Part shown: positions 23,083 through 63,872 of the stretch, piece after piece
How positions within the stretch are numbered: the stretch's first letter is position 1
How the letters are laid out: every line of letters begins with the position of its first letter
Source of the DNA: Octopus vulgaris
Lineage: Eukaryota
Direction: 5' to 3'
DNA: 64,000 bases
Assembly: GCA_951406725.2 (NCBI GenBank)
Contig: OX597821.1
Span: 33,294,001-33,358,000 of the forward strand
Translations under genes and position numbers: made by a program
Notes under the pieces: generated by a model
The model's input: the letters and a program-made list of their open reading frames with translations, nothing else
The model's database searches: none
What the model was told of the DNA's origin: nothing

Positions 23083-23446
23083 CTAGCACTATGACCCGAC
23101 AACACTGGGTCATAGTGCTAGTGCTTGCATATACAGCTGCGTGCGTGCACACATACACGCGAGTACTGTCCAAATCTCCGACCAATCACTTACAGCTAGC
23201 TGGCATTCAATTGGCGTATCAAGTTTCGGGCATTTTGATTGGGTTTTGGATAGTAAATTCACAAAAAAGTCACTTCTATTGATTTTTTAATGGCTTTACG
23301 GGGTGACTGGGGAAATGAAAAGATGTGCACGACCACCCTTGGACGGTTTGGAATGACCATAGAAAGTGTGAGCCCTCTAACTGAAAAATTGTGGATTTGT
23401 ATAAAGGACACGCACGCAGACATTTTGCCGTTTATATATATAGAGA
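23083..23446 (-). mobile_element. Non-autonomous Helitron, family B
   Basis: On the minus strand: A|TCTCTATATATATAAACGGCA ... GACCCAGTGTTGTCGGGTCATAGTGCTAG|T. Confidence 0.75.
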
Positions 23447-23851: not shown

Positions 23852-24487
23852 CTAGCAGTATCGCCCGGCGTTGCTCGGGTTTGTAAGGGAAATAACTATA
23901 TAAGCATTTTTAGAGAGTTATAGCCAAAAAATAGCAAAAAATGCATTAAAAATGGAAAAAATATGATGGTAAATTTTTTTTAAAATCGTTGACTCATCGT
24001 AGACATTTTTAGAGAGTTACTTCCCTTATATAATAGCGAAAAAATGCATTAAAATGTAAAAAAACGATGGTAAATTTTTTTTTAAATCGTAGACTCATGT
24101 AGACGCTTTCTTAGCCATTTCTGTTTTGGTGTCTTCAAGCCATGAAGTCGTTGTTCTAAAAGAACGCTGGTCTCCTTGACAACGCATTACGACGTTGATT
24201 TCCTTACACTCCCTTCCCCACAGGTGCAGGTGTGAGCATGGACGCCAACTCCGCCGCCATCGACACACGAAAAATTATGCATTAAAATGGAATAAAAAAT
24301 GATGTTAAATTATTTTTAAAATCGTAGACTCATCGTAGACGCGCGCTAATACTCAGACGGGCTCGATATGAATCACGACTATAAGCTACCCAAATTTGGT
24401 TAAACTGCACCGCAAAATGTGGGAGTAGTTAGGAATCTAAATCGAAGGGGACAGACACTCACACAACTACAGTTTTATATATATAGA
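23852..24487 (-). mobile_element. Non-autonomous Helitron, family A
   Basis: On the minus strand: A|TCTATATATATAAAACTG ... CCCGAGCAACGCCGGGCGATACTGCTAG|T; inserted in (TA)n. Confidence 0.88.
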
Positions 24488-24499
24488 TATACATAGCGC

Positions 24500-25098
24500 A
24501 GTAGTGGTGAGATGTGACAGCAAAGAAAAGCATACATTCACTCTCTGCATGCAATTAGACTCGGAAAGTTCGTGAGGAACCCATTGACCCAATTTGCTGA
24601 CTTTTCCGATAGCACACAGGTCTCAATGAATGGTTGAATGACCAAATCCAAGCTTCTCTGCTAGTTCCTCAACAGTTACGATGAGATTTTGTTCCACCAG
24701 GGTTTTCAGGATGTCCTTGTCGAGTTCTACAGATCTTTCAGGATGAGGCTCGTCTTCTAGGCTGTAGTTTATGGCTCGGAATTTCTGGAACCACCATTGA
24801 CACTGCCTTACGCTTATTGTCCAATCCCCATATACTGCATTAATATTTCTTGTACTTTCCGTTGCGTTGTTGTCTTTATTGAACTCATAAAGCAAAATAT
24901 GCCAAATATGCTCCTTTGTTACTTCCAATATAGCTTTGAAAAAAATAGCTGTTAAAATCGAAATGCGCTCTTCAAAACCTGCACTATGAATAAGGACAAG
25001 ATAAAATTACTACCTGCTTTTATAGCAAGTTAATATAAGTAGTTTATCCCATTCCCCTCTGACTTTTAGTTCAAGCTGTTGAAAAAACCGCATTATTA
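24500..25098 (-). pseudogene. Mariner transposase 5' fragment
   Basis: ORF 24623-24928 (EHIWHILLYEF...NINAVYGD...WFQKFR...LEDEPHPER...EELAEKLG) matches the mariner HTH. After a stop it continues with the WVPHEL motif. TIR-like TAATGCGGTTTTT near 25090. Confidence 0.88.
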
Positions 25099-25368
25099 TA
25101 TATATATACATACATACATACATACATATACACACACACTCTCTCTCTCACACACATGCACACATTTATATTCTGTTATTCTTTTATATGTTTCAGCCTT
25201 GAGGTTGTGGCCATGCTGGATCATGTGTGTGTGTGTGTGTGTGTGTCTATCTGTCTGTCTGTCTGTATGTATATATGTATATGTATGTGTGTGAACAATA
25301 ATATTTTCAACAGATGTGTTGCAAATGTATCTGATTGTTCTCAAGCTTCAGTACTGTGTGTGTGTGTA

Positions 25369-25399
<31 letters not shown>

Positions 25400-25470
25400 A
25401 TGTATGTATGTATGTATATGTATGTATGTATGTATGTGTGTATGTATGTATGTGTGTGTGTATGTATGTA

Positions 25471-25503
<33 letters not shown>

Positions 25504-25706
25504 ATGTATGTATGTATGAGTGTATGTTTACTTTATTACTAACACAAGCCACTACGGTTATTTAATGTAAAGTCTTCCTCAAATCACTCTCTCTGGCTAT
25601 TTACTCTCTTCCAAGAACATTTTCACTCACTCTTATGTGTTAGCTTCCCATACATTTTACTCATGTATCTATCAGCGTGATAGACAGAAACAAATATTAC
25701 ATCTAG

Positions 25707-25973
25707 TTTCATTTTATTCGTTGCACACTGTGTGTGTGCGTTTGCGTGTGGTGTAAACCAGACTAAGAAAAGCATTTGACACACACACCAGAATGTGAGT
25801 TTTCTGTAAATTTTGCTTAATTGGAGTTTAAATTTTAAAAACTGGACCTGGCATGACGCGATGCATTCTACTCTTAAAAATGCTAGGTAAATTGTAATTG
25901 AAGAAATCCTATATTGTAGATTTGTATAACTCCCAAAGGGAGGCAGATAAAATCTGCCTTTTATAATAAGAGA
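25707..25973 (-). mobile_element. Fourth copy of the composite-Helitron 5' module
   Basis: ~267 bp nearly identical to 28485-28751, with the TC end abutting (TA)n. Confidence 0.8.
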
Positions 25974-26538: not shown

Positions 26539-26562
26539 TATATATATATATATATATATATA

Positions 26563-26953
26563 CTAGCAGTATCGCCCGGCATTGCTCGGGTTTGTAAGGG
26601 AAATAATTATATAAGCATTTTTAGAGATGTAAAGTATAATAGCCATCTCAATATGGCTAACCACAAAGGGGGAGCGGTGTTACTGTAGCTTTTTACGTTC
26701 TGAGATTTAATAATAAATTTTAGAGAGTTACTTCCCTTATATATGTCAAAAATGGATTAAAAATGGGAAAAATGGTAAATTTTTTTTTAAATCGTAGACT
26801 CATCGTAGACGCGCGCTAATACCCAGACGGTCTCGATATGAATCACGACTATAAGATACCCGGTTTTGGTTAAACTGCACCGCAAAATGTGGGAGTAGTT
26901 AGGAATCTAAATCGTAGGAGACAGACACACAACCTCACTTTTATATATAAAGA
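26563..26953 (-). mobile_element. Non-autonomous Helitron, family A (3' module of composite)
   Basis: Has its own TC 5' end (TCTTTATATATAAAAGTG) and the hairpin+CTAG 3' end; homologous to 23852-24487. Confidence 0.85.
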
Positions 26954-27020
26954 TTTCCTCTATTTACATAATATTGAGGTCTCTTTCTTTCTTTTGTTAT
27001 CTTACTGTTTTTACCAATAT

Positions 27021-27073
<53 letters not shown>

Positions 27074-27263
27074 CAGAGATGTACTTGCATAGCAAGTGAC
27101 TTGATCTGAGATCGTGTGCTGGAACGAAAACAGTTGCAGCGTTGAAGGTGTTTATAAGCCATTTAAGAAACACACAAAAACCGTTAGATTCACTTCAACA
27201 TTTAAATTTAATTTGTCAAAATATTTTCGTCGCTTTGAGACCGCGACCTGTTAGCACGATATT

Positions 27264-27314
27264 TTTGTCAGTGAACAGGTCGCGGTCTGAAAGCGACGAA
27301 AATATTTTGGCAAA
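27264..27314 (+). ncRNA. Type I hammerhead-ribozyme-like motif with G3-C8 core variant
   Basis: Stem I TTTGTCA/TGGCAAA, core GTGAACA plus an extra G, stem II GTCGC/GCGAC, GAAA, palindromic stem III AATATT, NUH=UUU. Confidence 0.6.
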
Positions 27315-27759
27315 TTAAATTTAAATGTTGAAGTGAATGTAACGGTTTTTGTGTGTTTCTTAAATGGCTTACAAACACCTTCCAGGCTGCAATATATATA
27401 TACACACATATATATATATGTATGTATGTATGTATGTGTGTATATGTGTATGCATGTATGTGTGTGTGTGTGCATGTCTGTGCTTGTGATTGTCCTCCAC
27501 CACTGCTTGACAACGAATGTTGGTTTGTTTACATCCCTGTCAACTAGTGGTTTGACAAAGGAAACAGATAGAATAAGTACAATGCTTACAAAAATAAAAC
27601 TGGAGTTGATTCATTAAACTACAATTCTTCAAGGCATTGCCCCAGCATGGCCACAGACCAATGGCTGGAAAAAGCAGAAGAATAAAAGAATACATTCTCT
27701 GCTTTGGTCATATGTTGAAGGCATGAGAAAGCTTGAGTTTACATGAGAAGGCCTAACAG

Positions 27760-28238
27760 ACCTGGTAGAAACAGCAGCCAAATCTCCCTCAAATCACACC
27801 TTACTGTCTTATGTATGTATATATATATGAGCCAATGAGGGGGACCTCTACATGGTAGCTAGACCTGGTAGAAATAGCAGCCAAATTTCCCCCAAATCAC
27901 ACCTTACTGTCTTATCTATGTATATATGTATGTATGAGCCTATGAGGGAGACCCCTACATGGCAGCTAGACCTGGTAGAAATAGCAGCCAAATTTCCCCC
28001 AAATCACACCTTACTGTCTTATCTATGTATATATGTATGTATGAGCCTATGAGGGAGACCCCTACATGGCAGCTAGACCTGGTAGAAATAGCAGCCAAAT
28101 TTCCCCCAAATCACACCTTACTGTCTTATCTATGTATATATGTATGTATGAGCCTATGAGGGAGACCCCTACATGGCAGCTAGACATGGTAGAAATAGCA
28201 GCCAAATCTCCCTCAAATCACACCTTACTGTCTTATCT
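27760..28238. repeat. 107-bp tandem array (~4.5 units) inside composite Helitron
   Basis: Unit contains GACCTGGTAGAAATAGCAGCCAAATTTCCCCCAAATCACACC; ORF starts recur at 27852, 27959, 28066 and 28173. Repeated at 29122-29519 and inverted at 30572-31053. Confidence 0.95.
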
Positions 28239-28763
28239 TTCTGCTACTTGGATATAGGTGTTATATTCGTCGTAAAAAACTTTCCTGTCACACACTCACG
28301 CACACGCGCACACACACACACACACACACACACGCACCCTCACACACACACACACACACCCACACACACCCACTCACACACACGCACGTTAGCTTACAAT
28401 TTTATTTATATATTTGCGTGTCTGTGTGGAAAGAGGAAGTGGGAGGCAGAGTGAAAGAATCACTCACTACAGTAAGTGAATTACTTTCATTTTATTCGTT
28501 GCCCACTGTGTGTGTGCGTTTGCGTGTGCTGTAAACCAGACTAAGAAAAGCATTTGACACACACACCAGAATGTGAGTTTTCTGTAAATTTTGCTTAACT
28601 GGAGTTTAAATTTTAAAAACTGGACCTGGCATGACGCGATGCATTGTACTCTTAAAAATGCAAGGTAAATTGTAATTGAAGAAATCCTATATTGTAGATT
28701 TGTATAACTCCCAAAGGGAGGCAGATAAAATCTGCCTTTTATAATAAGAGATATATATATATA

Positions 28764-29121
28764 CTAGCAGTATCGCCCGGCGTTTCTCGGGTTTGTAAGG
28801 GAAATAACTATAAAGCATTTTTAGAGAGTTATAGCCAAAAAAATGGAAAAAAAATGATGGTAAATTTTTTTTAGTTAAAAAGGTCGAGTTGCGTCCCCTA
28901 GACAGTCTGTGGTTTGTGTTTCTGATTCTCGACTCCATGTCGAATTTATCGATTTTTTCAGAACTGGGGGAACTTTTCAAAATTTTCGCTGCGTTAGTTT
29001 TGAATTATGACATTGGGCTATGTGTGTGTCAAGTTTCATCAGAATCGGTTGAAAGACGTGGTCAGGGTGAGGGTACAACCTGACAGACACACAGACAAAC
29101 TGCCGTTTATATATAGAGAGA
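28764..29121 (-). mobile_element. Non-autonomous Helitron, chimeric (family B-like 5' end, family A 3' end)
   Basis: 5' TCTCTCTATATATAAACGGCA resembles the end at 23446; the 3' ~110 bp match family A. Confidence 0.8.
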
Positions 29122-30037
29122 TGAGGGGGACCTCTACATGGTAGCTAGACCTGGTAGAAATAGCAGCCAAATTTCCCCCAAATCACACCTTACTGTCTTA
29201 TCTATGTATGTATGTATGAGCCTATGAGGGAGACCCTACATGGCAGCTAGACCTGGTAGAAATAGCAGCCAAATTTCCCCCAAATCACACCTTACTGTCT
29301 TATCTATGTATATATGTATGTATGAGCCTATGAGGGAGACCCCTACATGGCAGCTAGACCTGGTAGAAATAGCAGCCAAATCTCCCTCAAATCACACCTT
29401 ACTGTCTTATCTATGTATATATGTATGTATGAGCCTATGAGGGAGACCCCTACATGGCAGCTAGACATGGTAGAAATAGCAGCCAAATCTCCCTCAAATC
29501 ACACCTTACTGTCTTATCTTTCTGCTACTTGGATATAGGTGTTATATTCGTCGTAAAAAAACTTTCCTGTCACACACTCACGCACACGCACACACACACA
29601 CACACACACACACCCTCACACACACACACACACACACGCGCACACCCACACACACCCACTCACACACACGCACGTTAGCTTACAATTTTATTTATATATT
29701 TGCGTGTCTGTGTGGAAAGAGGAAGTGGGAGGCAAAGTGAAAGAATCACTCACTACAGTAAGTGAATTACTTTCATTTTATTCGTTGCCTACTGTGTGTG
29801 TGCGTTTGCGTGTGGTGTAAACCAGACTAAGAAAAGCATTTGACACACACACCAGAATGTGAGTTTTCTGTAAATTTTGCTTAACTGGAGTTTAAATTTT
29901 AAAAACTGGACCTGGCATGACGCGATGCATTGTACTCTTAAAAATGCAAGGTAAATTGTAATTGAAGAAATGCTATATTGTAGATTTGTATAACTCCCAA
30001 AGGGAGGCAGATAAAATCTGCCTTTTATAATAAGATA
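28764..30037 (-). mobile_element. Shortened composite Helitron, ~1.27 kb
   Basis: 29122-30037 duplicates 27836-28751. It is joined at an A|T site to an inner Helitron (28764-29121) that supplies the hairpin+CTAG end. Confidence 0.75.
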
Positions 30038-30419
30038 TATCTCTTATTATAAAAGGCAGATTTTATCTGCCTCCCTTTGGGAGTTATACAAATCTACAAT
30101 ATAGCATTTCTTCAATTACAATTTACCTTGCATTTTTAAGAGTACAATGCATCGCGTCATGCCAGGTCCAGTTTTTAAAATTTAAACTCCAGTTAAGCAA
30201 AATTTACAGAAAACTCACATTCTGGTGTGTGTGTCAAATGCTTTTCTTAGTCTGGTTTACACCACACGCAAACGCACACACACAGTGGGCAAGGAATAAA
30301 ATGAAACTAATTCACTTACTGTAGTGAGTGATTCTTTCACTCTGCCTCCCACTTCTTCTTTCCACACAGACACGCAAATATATAAATAAAATTGTAAGCT
30401 AACGTGCGTGCGTGCGTGC

Positions 30420-30466
<47 letters not shown>

Positions 30467-31490
30467 TGTGTGTGTGTGTGACGGTGCGTGTGTGTGTGTG
30501 CGTGTGCGTGAGTGTGTGACAGGAAAGTTTTTTTTACGACGAATATAACACCTATATCCAAGTAGCAGAAAGATAAGACAGTAAGGTGTGATTTGAGGGA
30601 GATTTGGCTGCTATTTCTACCATGTCTAGCTGCCATGTAGGGGTCTCCCTCATAGGCTCATACATACATATATACATAGATAAGACAGTAAGGTGTGATT
30701 TGGGGGAAATTTGGCTGCTATTTCTACCAGGTCTAGCTGCCATGTAGGGGTCTCCCTCATAGGCTCATACATACATATATACATAGATAAGACAGTAAGG
30801 TGTGATTTGGGGGAAATTTGGCTGCTATTTCTACCAGGTCTAGCTGCCATGTAGGGGTCTCCCTCATAGGCTCATACATACATATATACATAGATGAGAC
30901 AGTAAGGTGTGATTTGGGGGAAATTTGGCTGCTATTTCTACCAGGTCTAGCTACCATGTAGAGGTCCCCCTCATTGGCTCATATATATATATACATACAT
31001 AAGACAGTAAGGTGTGATTTGAGGGAGATTTGGCTGCTGTTTCTACCAGGTCTGTTAGGCCTTCTCATGTAAACTCAAGCTTTCTCATGCCTTCAACATA
31101 TGACCAAAGCAGAGAATGTATTCTTTTATTCTTCTGCTTTTTCCAGCCATTGGTCTGTGGCCATGCTGGGGCAATGCCTTGAAGAATTGTAGTTTAATGA
31201 ATCAACTCCAGTTTTATTTTTGTAAGCATTGTACTTATTCTATCTGTTTCCTTTGTCAAACCACTAGGTGACAGGGATGTAAACAAACCAACATTCGTTG
31301 TCAAGCAGTGGTGGAGGACAAGCACAGACACGCACACACACACACATACATGCATACACATATACACACATACATACATACATACATATATATATGTGTG
31401 TGTATATATATATTGCAGTGTGGAAGGTGTTTATAAGCCATTTAAGAAACACACAAAAACCGTTACATTCACTTCAACATTTAAATTTAA

Positions 31491-31541
31491 TTTGCCAAAA
31501 TATTTTCGTCGCTTTCAGACCGCGACCTGTTCACTGACAAA
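31491..31541 (-). ncRNA. Second copy of the G3-C8 hammerhead-like motif
   Basis: Reverse complement of 27264-27314 within the inverted composite. Confidence 0.6.
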
Positions 31542-31747
31542 AATATCGTGCTAACAGGTCGCGGTCTCAAAGCGACGAAAATATTTTGACAAATTAAATT
31601 TAAATGTTGAAGTGAATCTAACGGTTTTTGTGTGTTTCTTAAATGGCTTATAAACACCTTCAACGCTGCAACTGTTTTCGTTCCAGCACACGATCTCAGA
31701 TCAAGTCACTTGCTATGCAAGTACATCTCTGTAACTATATATATATT

Positions 31748-31778
<31 letters not shown>

Positions 31779-31841
31779 TGGTAAAAACAGTAAGATAACA
31801 AAAGAAAGAAAGAGACCTCAATATTATGTAAATAGAGGAAA

Positions 31842-32235
31842 TCTTTATATATAAAAGTGAGGTTGTGTGTCTGTCTCCTACGATTTAGATTCCTAACTAC
31901 TCCCACATTTTGCGGTGCAGTTTTACCAAAACCGGGTATCTTATAGTCGTGATTCATATCGAGACCGTCTGGGTATTAGCGCGCGTCTACGATGAGTCTA
32001 CGATTTAAAAAAAATTTACCATCAATTTTTCCCATTTTTAATCCATTTTTGACATATATAAGGGAAGTAACTCTCTAAAATTTATTATTAAATCTCAGAA
32101 CGTAAAAAGCTACAGTAACACCCCTCCCCCTTTGTGGTTAGCCATATTGAGATGGCTATTATACTTTACATCTCTAAAAATGCTTATATAATTATTTTCC
32201 TTACAAACCCGAGCAACGCCGGGCGATACTGCTAG
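31842..32235 (+). mobile_element. Non-autonomous Helitron, family A (3' module of composite)
   Basis: A|TCTTTATATATAAAAGTG ... hairpin ... CTAG|T. Confidence 0.85.
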
Positions 32236-33078
32236 TATATATATATATAATAATGTTCTGAATTCAAATGCTACTGTGTTACACTTTGCCTTACATTCTT
32301 TCTATTGTGGATAAAATACTCTTCAAGTTCTCAGGCTGTGCCTTAATTAGAAATAGTATAAGTGTATAATAGTATAAGAATCTTGAAGCAGACAAAGCTA
32401 CAATCAATAGAATCTAAATGTTGGGTTTAAAAAACCCTTTCTCTGCTTTGAGTTTCACCTTTTCAAAATCAAAAATAAAAAATTATTTTCCTTACAAAAT
32501 GAACATTTTTCAAGAATTTAGGTGCCAAATAATATCTTTTTATTTATTTATTTATTTATTTATTTGCTTAGTCCTTCTACTATAGCCTCAGGCCAACCAA
32601 AGACTTGTGAATGTATTTAGTTGAGAGAAACTGGAAGCCTCTCGTAGATATGTGTGTGTCTTCGTGTCTGTGTTTGCCAACCCCCCTCCACTGCTTGACA
32701 ACCAGTGTTGGTGTGTTTGCGTCCCTGTAACTTTGTGGTTTGGCAAAAAGGACCGATAGAATAAAAAGGAAATAAATACTGAGGTCAATTAGTTCAACTA
32801 AGATTCAAGGCGGTGCTCCAGCATGGCCGTAGGTTAATTACTGAAATAAGTAAAAGATAAAAGATATATTTTTATATGCAGCATCTCAAGACTTTCAATG
32901 ATCAACAGTTTCTCTTTCTTTAAACTCAAGCTAAGAGCCAACAAGGTGGACTCTAGCTGGTCGCTTGACATATTTTAGAAAATAGCAGCCCTGTTCCTCA
33001 CAGATGCTGTCCTACGCTTAAATTCAGAAAAGAAGGACACATTAGACAATGAAGTCCTTGATACACACTGACATGGGG

Positions 33079-51336: not shown

Positions 51337-52135
51337 CCATTGATTATATTGCCATTATCCTCAGTGGCATATATATATATATATATATTTAAGTAGGTGA
51401 ATGAATTATTCTATGCTTATCGTCAGCATGGAAAATTCGTTTAACCGAAACCTGGGTAGCAAATTCACGTCAGAAAACACGGTTGAAGCGACCTGTCAAG
51501 GGTAGAAACTCCGGGTTCATGTGTAGAAATTTGTGTGTTGTATATGAATAAATGAAATGTGTCGAGAGTAAAGGAATTTTGTTAACATCTTCGTTCGACT
51601 CCATTCTTTCATTTATTTATATATATATATATATACACATACACATATATGTATGTACACACGCACACAAACACACACACATCCATACATACAGGGCACT
51701 TTACTAATGTGTTTGTGTATTATTTGACTATAGTCTGTAATATATCATACCAAGTACATTCTATATCCCTACCCAGAGCAGTCTTCTAATATATTGCATT
51801 AATTCCTTACTGCTTTAGCTAAGAAAGAAGCTAACACGAGCTGGTGTGAATATAAACATAGATATCAATTACATTTCACTCTAAAGGAGTTTATCAAAAG
51901 GGATATTTTGAATGAATTAACTGTTAAGATTTTCAGTGTAAAGCGATATGCTTTTAAAGCATATCACCCATTTGAGATTGAAAAGGGGAACATGTCAGAG
52001 AAGTGTTTCTCCCTTCTGTCTCATATTGATGATTTGAACCAAATACTCTCTTTTACTTGTTTCAGTCATTTGACTGTGGCCATGCTGGAGCATCGCCTTT
52101 TAGTCGAGCAAATTGACCCTACATACATATATATA

Positions 52136-52171
<36 letters not shown>

Positions 52172-52486
52172 TGTATGTATGTATGTATATATGTGTTTGT
52201 TCCTTCCCTTTGTCATAATGTGTTGTCCCTGAACATCACTTGACAACAGATGCTGGTGTGTTTACATCCTTGTAACTTAGCAGTTCGGCAAAAGAGACTG
52301 ATAGAATAAGTACTAGGCTTACAAAGAATAAGTCCTAGGGTCAATTTGCTTGACTAAAAGGCGATGCTCCAGCATGGCCACAGTCAAATGACTGAAACAA
52401 GTAAAAGAGAGTATTTGGTTCAAATCATCAATATGAGACAGAAGGGAGAAACACTTCTCTGACATGTTCCCCTTTTCAATCTCAAA

Positions 52487-52657
52487 TGCAGAAATTGAAG
52501 AAAAAAAACAACAAATATCTTACAAACAATAGAATTTTCTCAGTAAAGCCAAGAGAAAAAGCTGTTTTATAAACACATTCTACCAGTATATGAAGTTTAA
52601 AATTTTTTAGTTGCCTAGAAGTTATGTTAAAAACTGCCGTTCAAACCGAAAAGATCC
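52487..52657. mobile_element. Truncated half copy of the Merlin-like MITE
   Basis: One TIR (AAACTGCCGTTCAAACCGAAAAGATCC) plus ~140 bp of body. Confidence 0.75.
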
Positions 52658-56114: not shown

Positions 56115-56415
56115 TCTATATATATAAAAGAAAAGTTGTGTGGTGTCTGTCTCCTATGATTTAGATTCCTAACTACTCCCACATTTTGCGGTGTAGTTTA
56201 ACCAAAAGTGGGTATCTTATAATCGTGATTCATAATGAGCCCTTCTGGGTAATAGCGCGCATCTACGATGAGTCTACGATTTAAAAAAAAATTTACCATC
56301 ATTTTTTTCCATTTTTAATGCATTTTTTGCTATTATATAAGGGAAGTAACTCTCTAAAAATGCTTATATAGTTATTTCCCTTACAAACCCGAGCAACGCC
56401 AGGTGATACCGCTAG
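56115..56415 (+). mobile_element. Non-autonomous Helitron, family A, stand-alone copy
   Basis: A|TCTATATATATAAAAG ... CCCGAGCAACGCCAGGTGATACCGCTAG|T; homologous to 31842-32235. Confidence 0.85.
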
Positions 56416-62200: not shown

Positions 62201-63872
62201 TTATTATTATTGTTATTATTAAAAAAGCAGTGAGCCAACAGAATTGCCACCACGCTGGACAAAATGCTTAACGGCATTTCATCAGTTTTCATGTTTTGAG
62301 TTCAAATTCCACCAAGGCTGACGTTGACTTTCATCCTTTCGGGGTTGATAGATTAAGTGACAGCAAAATCCTGGAGTCGATGTAATTGACTTAACCCCTT
62401 CTGAAAAGAATCAGGCATTGTGCCTTTAGTTGAAAGGCTTATTATTATTGTTGTTAAAAAGGCGGTGAGCCAGCAGAATTGTTAACACATCGAACAGAAT
62501 GCTTAGCAGTTTTTCATCCGTTGCTACGTTCTGAGTTCAAATTCCGCTGAGGTCAGCTTTGCCTTTCATTCTTTCCGGGTCGATAAATTAAGTACCAGTG
62601 AAACACTGGAGTCGATGTAATTGACTATTCCTCTCTCCAAAAATTTCAGATCTTGCGTCTATAGTAGAAAGGATTATTATTATTATTATTATTTTTAGAT
62701 GAGTACCAGATGAATTTGGGTTGAGAGACTAGAGGACATTTACACATTCTCTTTATCATCTACCTTACTAATCTCATTTCTTCTGCTTCTTAATTCTTTT
62801 CCTCCCCCCCTCCTCCTCCTCACTTTCTCCTCTTTCCAAACATGTGGCTGTAATTATGTAAATTTATATCATACTCTCATATTTCCACAGGATTTTTCTA
62901 AAGATGGTGGTGATTAAGTTATTTTGTTTTCGTTTTCTGCGTTCTAAACATATGAACTACATTGAGCTCTATAATCAAAGCCAGATATGAAAATTATACT
63001 TTGGAAATTGGAGTCTTGAGAAAGTCTGTTCATGGTTGCTCAACATGCTAGAAGCAGCAGCCAAATCTCTATCATATCACACCCTGTCACATTCAGAATG
63101 AAAGAGCATGTTGAAAAAGGTAATCTTCCATAAACTGTGACTGAGAAAAAGGCCAAATAAGCAAATAACAAAGCCTCCACATGCTAGAAATAGCAGCCAA
63201 ATCAACAGCATATCACGCTCTAGCTTTTTTTTAAAAAAAGGAATGAAACATTGACAAATGTAGTCCTAGTTACACTAAATCTCCCACATGTTATATCTTT
63301 ATCCTTTATCTTTTACATGTTTCAGTATTAGACTGTGGCCATACTGGAACACGATCTTGGAGGGTTTGGGCAAACAGATTAGACCCAGTACTTAATTTCA
63401 AGTATGGTGCTTATTATATTGACCTGTTTTGCTGAACTATCAAGATACAGGGACATAGACAAAGCAACACTGATTGTCAAATAGCTGGGGAGACAAACAC
63501 ACACACATACACTTACATACATACATACATACACACATACATACATACATACGCATGCATACATACATACATACATACATATATACATACATACATACAA
63601 ACATGCATACATACATACATACAAATATGCATACATACATACATACATACACACATACATACGCATGCATACATACATACACACATACATACATACATAC
63701 ATACATACATACAAACGTACGTACGTACATGCATGCATACATACATACATACATACATACATACAAACATGCATACATACATACATACATACAAACATAC
63801 ATACATGCATACATGCACATACATACATACATACATACATACATACATACATACATACATACATACATACAA

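Follow-up and report, generated by a model that had tools for sequence, protein, structure and literature searches.

For the Helitron Helraiser, the excerpted text of PMC4778049 describes the hairpin as the terminator and only the 5′ end as essential. Read-through was reported for about 11.7% of the events with an intact end and for at least 36% of those without the hairpin, AT was the preferred target, and 701 re-transpositions occurred without local hopping. Helitron transposition passes through double-stranded circles according to the excerpt of PMC5876387, and AT targets have been confirmed for wheat Helitrons in the excerpt of PMC13286980, which yielded no further information about clustering. 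New Helitron ends that arise from neighbours or by nesting are described, in the parts of the papers that were available, for bats (PMC4778049; PMC4224331), maize (PMC3288121), and silkworm (PMC3789558), and a preferential insertion of maize Helitrons near other Helitrons is cited in the excerpt of PMC3288121. For Octopus vulgaris, the excerpt of PMC13282606 lists 84 Helitron families without sequences. The definitions of the two classes HLE1 and HLE2 follow the excerpt of PMC11417382. In the literature, which was covered in part, no account was found of the families described below or of a TA tract occupied by several copies.

The Analyzed Window

The window comprises 64 kb of Octopus vulgaris contig OX597821.1 (33,294,001-33,358,000), and all sequence evidence presented here stems from these 64 kb. 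It is AT-rich, with a GC content of about 0.25-0.45 per kb, and it is crowded with microsatellites and dispersed repeats of 200-400 bp, as in animal non-coding DNA; the repeats presumably resemble SINE-like families of octopus. Runs of at least six TA units were matched 59 times in the window, and many of these matches are pieces of the same compound tracts. No tRNA genes were found in it with ARAGORN. In a Pfam scan of 10 of the 260 open reading frames no RepHel domain was detected, and the two reading frames overlapping the element under study (copy B, see below) had no Pfam match. The sole match among the reading frames scanned was a helix-turn-helix fragment of a Mos1-type mariner transposase (24623-25003, minus strand; HTH_48, E value 5e-20). 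At another site, 51969-52121 and 52336-52488 form an inverted repeat of 153 bp with 99.3% identity, which spans the ends of a SINE-like repeat and the adjoining element and looks like a recent local inverted duplication.

Copy B Is a Chimeric Helitron

Copy B (28764-30037, minus strand, 1274 bp) is a non-autonomous element that begins with 916 bp from the 5′ end of a non-autonomous composite of 2.2 kb and continues with a different Helitron of 358 bp, termed H3, which supplies the hairpin and the CTAG end. The composite part consists of the 271-bp 5′ module H1 (29767-30037, minus strand), which has an 8-bp hairpin near its 5′ end and a broken old terminator hairpin, and of the retained cargo (29122-29766, minus strand), in which a GT/CA tract is accompanied by a tandem array with 3.8 units of 107 bp. 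An earlier note on this DNA had proposed that 29122-30037 matches the composite up to exactly the A/T at 27835/27836 (the slash marks the joint), that a different 358-bp Helitron begins there, and that the rest of the cargo is absent. All of this was borne out. The 916 bp of B align with 27836-28751 of the full composite copy A (916 bp) and with 30040-30973 of the full composite copy C up to the junction, with a BLAST identity of 97.1% over 942 columns; the segment 28764-29121 begins with TC, carries the family hairpin, and ends with CTAG/T; and B lacks the last 1273 bp of A, at positions 26563-27835.

At the junction (29121/29122, minus strand; equivalent to 27835/27836 in A and 30973/30974 in C) an A of the cargo meets the first T of H3. 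On the strand of the element the parental sequence reads CCTCA/TTGG and that of B reads CCTCA/TCTC, and thus the join is ambiguous by 1 bp, the T being common to parent and H3. The junction falls into the fourth 107-bp array unit, which is the single one with diagnostic variants, and because of this position it can be stated that the junction is in register and that no unit was skipped. The 5′ junction of H3 coincides with an A/T of the parent. AT occupies 216 of the 2188 dinucleotide positions in A (0.10), so that this agreement would be expected by chance about one time in ten; more telling is the position of the break, exactly at the first base of H3. The intact Helitron end at an A/T points to a junction made by a transposase, and its interpretation as a nested insertion is well supported and probable. 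The outer end of B reads TATC instead of TCTC, so that the TC start lies at 30035 or, with 30037 as the end, the second position carries a mutation. The outer flanks are canonical, A/TC (from 30035) and CTAG/T, and lie in a TA tract, like those of A and C.

The Composite Family and Its Shared TA Tract

The composite itself is chimeric and is built from the H1 5′ module, DNA that looks captured, and a 391-bp Helitron, H2. The earlier note mentions one full copy of it; there are two. Copy A (26563-28751, minus strand, 2189 bp) is composed of H1 (28481-28751), cargo (26954-28480), and H2 (26563-26953), and it is bounded by A/TC and CTAG/T. H2 forms the 3′ end of A on the minus strand, has its own A/TC start inside the composite, and is related to two free Helitrons in the window, E and F. 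Copy C (30040-32235, plus strand, 2196 bp; H2 part 31842-32235) lies head-to-head with B, from which it is separated by a TA spacer of 2-4 bp. The two full copies are 97.0% identical over 2232 columns, and their global alignment has 36 substituted columns and six indels, many of them within microsatellites.

Copy A is flanked on the left by (TA)12 (26539-26562), a (TA)6 spacer separates A from B (28752-28763), and (TA)7 follows C on the right (32236-32249); taking out A, B, and C leaves a single continuous TA tract. The region 26539-32249 thus contains three young composite copies in both orientations in one (TA)n tract, and three copies per tract is unlike the outcome of independent random insertion. 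Copies B and C together form an inverted repeat of 915 bp with 95.7% identity around a centre of 2-4 bp, and this palindrome, created by the stacking, may be unstable. A rolling-circle head-to-tail concatemer of A and B was considered and rejected, as (TA)6 separates the two copies, C is inverted, and a precise join of CTAG to TC is lacking. It was also rejected that B is a mirror image of C, because B has private changes and a GT tract like that of A.

The cargo between H1 and H2 has the appearance of captured DNA and contains a CA tract, the 107-bp array, a SINE-like fragment with 69-73% identity to dispersed copies, and a palindrome. The latter is MITE-like, 260 bp long, and 90% self-complementary (27134-27392 in A and 31413-31671 in C); its arms differ between A and C, which suggests arm-to-arm conversion. 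About 50 bp of the 107-bp array unit are shared, at 81% identity, with a dispersed repeat at 63031-63083, and therefore the array probably originated from a repeat fragment inside the cargo.

The H1 module also occurs alone, as copy D (25703-25973, minus strand, 271 bp), which ends with a perfect 6-bp hairpin and CTAG. The identity of D with A, B, and C stops exactly at this CTAG. The combination of hairpin and CTAG is found at 20 of the 127,872 positions of the window, and the terminal fold of D has a z-score of -2.45 (4 of 200 shuffles). At the corresponding site of A, B, and C the hairpin is broken and the CTAG is replaced by GTAA, GTAA, and CTAA, respectively. The base on the 5′ side of D is an A, and the base that follows D is also an A and not the expected T. 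Copy D may represent the ancestral core; alternatively, a longer unit that ends at E (23852) may begin with it. The stretch of D, 1.2 kb, and E was considered as one longer composite (23852-25973); both of its outer flanks are TA tracts, and it is present as a single copy. Another feature of H1 is a perfect 8-bp hairpin 14 nt inside its 5′ end (30040-30080, plus strand, with equivalents in A, B, and D), which has a z-score of -4.04 and is kept in all four copies.

The Inner Helitron H3, Its Relatives, and Class Assignment

H3 (28764-29121, minus strand, 358 bp) has an intact TC start and a CTAG/T end, with the family hairpin 12 nt upstream of the end. Its last 110 nt or so are 82% identical to the end of E, and its first 40 nt are 82% identical to the start of a further Helitron, G. 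The hairpin carries one private change 22 nt from the end and is weak, with a predicted energy of -3.3 kcal/mol and a z-score of -0.33, and 67 of 200 shuffled sequences were equally stable. A, C, and E each have a predicted hairpin at the same distance of 12 nt, which is likewise non-significant (z-scores of -0.76 to -1.25), so that in A, B, C, and E this structure is no more stable than in shuffles; for HLE1 a short hairpin is expected 10-20 nt upstream of the 3′ end. The 3′ tip sequence is conserved in all five tips compared. The tips of H3 and H2 are 93.8% identical over 65 nt, and their last 44 nt are nearly identical and have no diagnostic site; within these 44 nt, A, C, H3, and E differ from one another by private single changes. 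Position -45 from the 3′ end is a G in H3 (and thus in B), E, and F, whereas it is an A in both composites. Due to this state, the tip of B is H3's own at least up to this position.

The window contains one copy each of B and H3; a sensitive BLAST search (word size 7) of the 64 kb found no second H3, no second B, and no intermediate bearing H3. A search for the shared 3′ tip in a prokaryotic genome collection gave 0 matches, which is uninformative. The related Helitron E (23852-24487, minus strand, 636 bp) has intact ends and a 3′ flank that is a TA tract; a subterminal block of it is duplicated internally, and it carries a 170-bp insert that is missing from F and H2. F (56115-56415, plus strand, 301 bp) is a free-standing relative of H2, which is older and has a decayed hairpin. 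G (23083-23446, minus strand, 364 bp) combines an H3-like 5′ end with an unrelated perfect terminal hairpin of 14 bp, which includes the CTAG and has a z-score of -5.46.

A TC start is present in A, C, D, H2, H3, E, F, and G, and in B at 30035 (TA if 30037 is taken). The 3′ motif CTRR was found as CTAG at the ends of B, A, C, D, E, F, and G. Insertion between A and T is seen for A, B, C, E, F, and G, a state that within a TA tract is also compatible with a duplication of TA. Judged by its TC, its CTAG, and its A/T site, B would be classified as a non-autonomous canonical Helitron (HLE1). An assignment to HLE2 (Helentron or DINE-1 type) was rejected, because the ends are TC and CTAG at A/T and not short terminal inverted repeats at T/T.

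Relationship of the Copies

The copies were compared over 827 aligned columns, with the GT tract left out, and the numbers of private substitutions were two in A, five in B, and four in C; in the same columns B also has private deletions of 1 and 4 bp. Two of the changes in B are probably due to a single conversion between array units. The poly-T run differs in A, B, and C, and the GT tract of B resembles that of A. When D is included, B agrees with C at site 66 and with A at site 268, and each of the four possible combinations of alleles at these two sites occurs in the four copies. This pattern suggests recombination, conversion, or recurrent mutation among the copies.

As the numbers of private changes are comparable, A, B, and C look like sisters of about the same age. 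H3 is absent from A as well as from C, and therefore neither of them can be the template of B; A as the direct template was rejected for this reason. The idea of the earlier note that a Helitron inserted at its A/T target within a composite agrees with the intact 5′ end joined to the cargo A/T. The accompanying view that parent and daughter lie side by side had to be abandoned: the true parent must hold H3, which A and C do not, and B has as many private changes as they have.

Discussion

Origin of Copy B

The best explanation for B is a canonical Helitron of which the 3′ end was replaced, H3 having been nested in a composite and a later round of transposition having stopped at the terminator of H3; its probability is put at about 0.5. 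In a first step, suggested by the comparison of D with A and C, the 271-bp H1 would have lost its terminator, and the transposase would have continued past it for about 1.5 kb of host DNA, as far as the neighbouring H2, yielding the 2.2-kb composite that was then copied. In a second step, of which the junction is observed, H3 would have inserted in the same orientation at an A/T 916 bp from the 5′ end of a composite. In a third step, a later round would have begun at the 5′ TC of H1, reached the hairpin and CTAG of H3 first, and ended there, and the 1.27-kb product would have integrated at an A/T of the TA tract in which A and C also lie. These two copies would then be sisters or aunts of B and not its template, and the H3-bearing intermediate would be located outside the window.

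Several observations favour this course of events. The break is at the first base of H3 and at an A/T of the parent, the flanks of B are canonical, and the state of position -45 is not that of the composite. Furthermore, A and C already represent one 5′ end that uses the next terminator, as indicated by the own A/TC start of H2 and by the hairpin and CTAG of D. Against it stand the lack of an intermediate, a second B, or a second H3 in the window, the weak H3 hairpin with its private mismatch, the 44-nt tip devoid of a diagnostic site, and the four allele combinations at sites 66 and 268. The first step is weakened by the A, rather than T, that follows D. In addition, an intermediate elsewhere would require B to have returned to exactly the tract of A and C, while local hopping was not observed for Helraiser according to the excerpted text (PMC4778049).

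Because the last 44 nt are nearly identical, termination at H3 and a tip-to-tip deletion in place give the same sequence. It is thus possible, though doubtful, that H3 inserted into a composite at this site and that the distal 1.27 kb were subsequently lost in place, by recombination or single-strand annealing between the tips of H3 and H2 acting as direct repeats, with no further transposition. All events would be local, which explains the place of B between A and C; the tips offer 93.8% identity over 65 nt, and nothing in the last 44 nt tells them apart; and the four-gamete pattern and the altered array units of B show exchange among the repeats. The crossover would, however, be limited to 44 nt, since position -45 is like that of H3, E, and F, and 44 nt is short for homologous recombination, whereas termination at the end of a neighbour has already been seen once in the window, in A and C.

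A more general and rather unlikely proposal is that the composite family amplifies locally, with copies that re-enter one (TA)n tract in both orientations, or are duplicated there, and trade sequence with one another, so that the TA microsatellite would serve as a nursery for the gain and swap of Helitron ends. If this were true, 6.5 kb would contain the whole series of D, A and C, and B, and would be a natural exception to the lack of local hopping of Helraiser.

It is clearly unlikely that H3 was first in the TA tract and that the 916-bp piece came to lie beside it, either as a 3′-truncated copy at the 5′ A/T of H3 or by a one-ended strand transfer of the 5′ end of H3 to an A/T in an adjacent full copy, with deletion of the sequence in between. 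The 3′ flank of H3 is (TA)6, H3 without the 916 bp sits at a normal A/TC in the tract, and the shared T of the junction recalls non-canonical Helraiser ends that overlap the target (excerpt of PMC4778049). Yet the piece ends with CTCA and lacks a CTRR, although a truncation should make use of one of its four CTAG sites, of which the last occupies positions 890-893 of the 916, and a zero spacer to H3 and a chance A/T in the parent (0.10) would both be required.

A junction that arose without a transposase, by ordinary deletion, by tandem or fold-back duplication, or as an assembly artefact at the B-C palindrome, is very improbable: an inverted repeat of 915 bp with 95.7% identity and a centre of 2-4 bp is prone to rearrangement and mis-assembly, but the break is at the first base of H3 with 1 bp shared, B is no mirror of C (five private substitutions, two deletions, and an A-like GT tract), and the symmetry ends at the junction, with different outer flanks.

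The class of mechanism is already known, and B is a chimeric Helitron whose structure can be read clearly. What is unusual is that the copies are stacked locally, and the series from D via A and C to B also stands out. If the third step of the preferred course, termination at H3, is true, B is a base-exact case of Helitron shortening via an internal terminator, the mirror of read-through capture; it would be useful for teaching and for the curation of repeat libraries, and the accepted model would be unchanged. If it proved general that young copies pile up in one TA tract, as three of them do here, this would matter more, because it bears on target choice, either by local hopping or by the targeting of microsatellites.

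Comparison With Known Systems

The elements share with HLE1 the 5′ TC, the 3′ CTAG downstream of a predicted hairpin, insertion at A/T, and the lack of terminal inverted repeats, of an evident target duplication, and of an encoded transposase. They differ in that no RepHel partner was identified among the 10 of 260 reading frames scanned. As far as the excerpt of PMC3288121 describes it, the maize element helitron_mc2 is similar in being a Helitron inside a Helitron, with a later round that mixes one 5′ end with another 3′ end. In contrast to B, the maize element starts at the inner 5′ end and keeps several 3′ ends, whereas B keeps the outer 5′ end and is shortened by the inner 3′ end. In the end-bypass and composite cases, which are HelibatN539 (excerpt of PMC4224331), the de novo 3′ ends of Myotis (excerpt of PMC4778049), and the merged BmHel families (excerpt of PMC3789558), one 5′ end is combined with the 3′ end of another element, with host DNA in between. 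A and C fit this arrangement as they stand, and B fits it in an extended sense. What differs from these cases is that the core D, the read-through copies A and C, and the re-terminated copy B all lie within 6.5 kb, and that three of the copies share one (TA)n tract.
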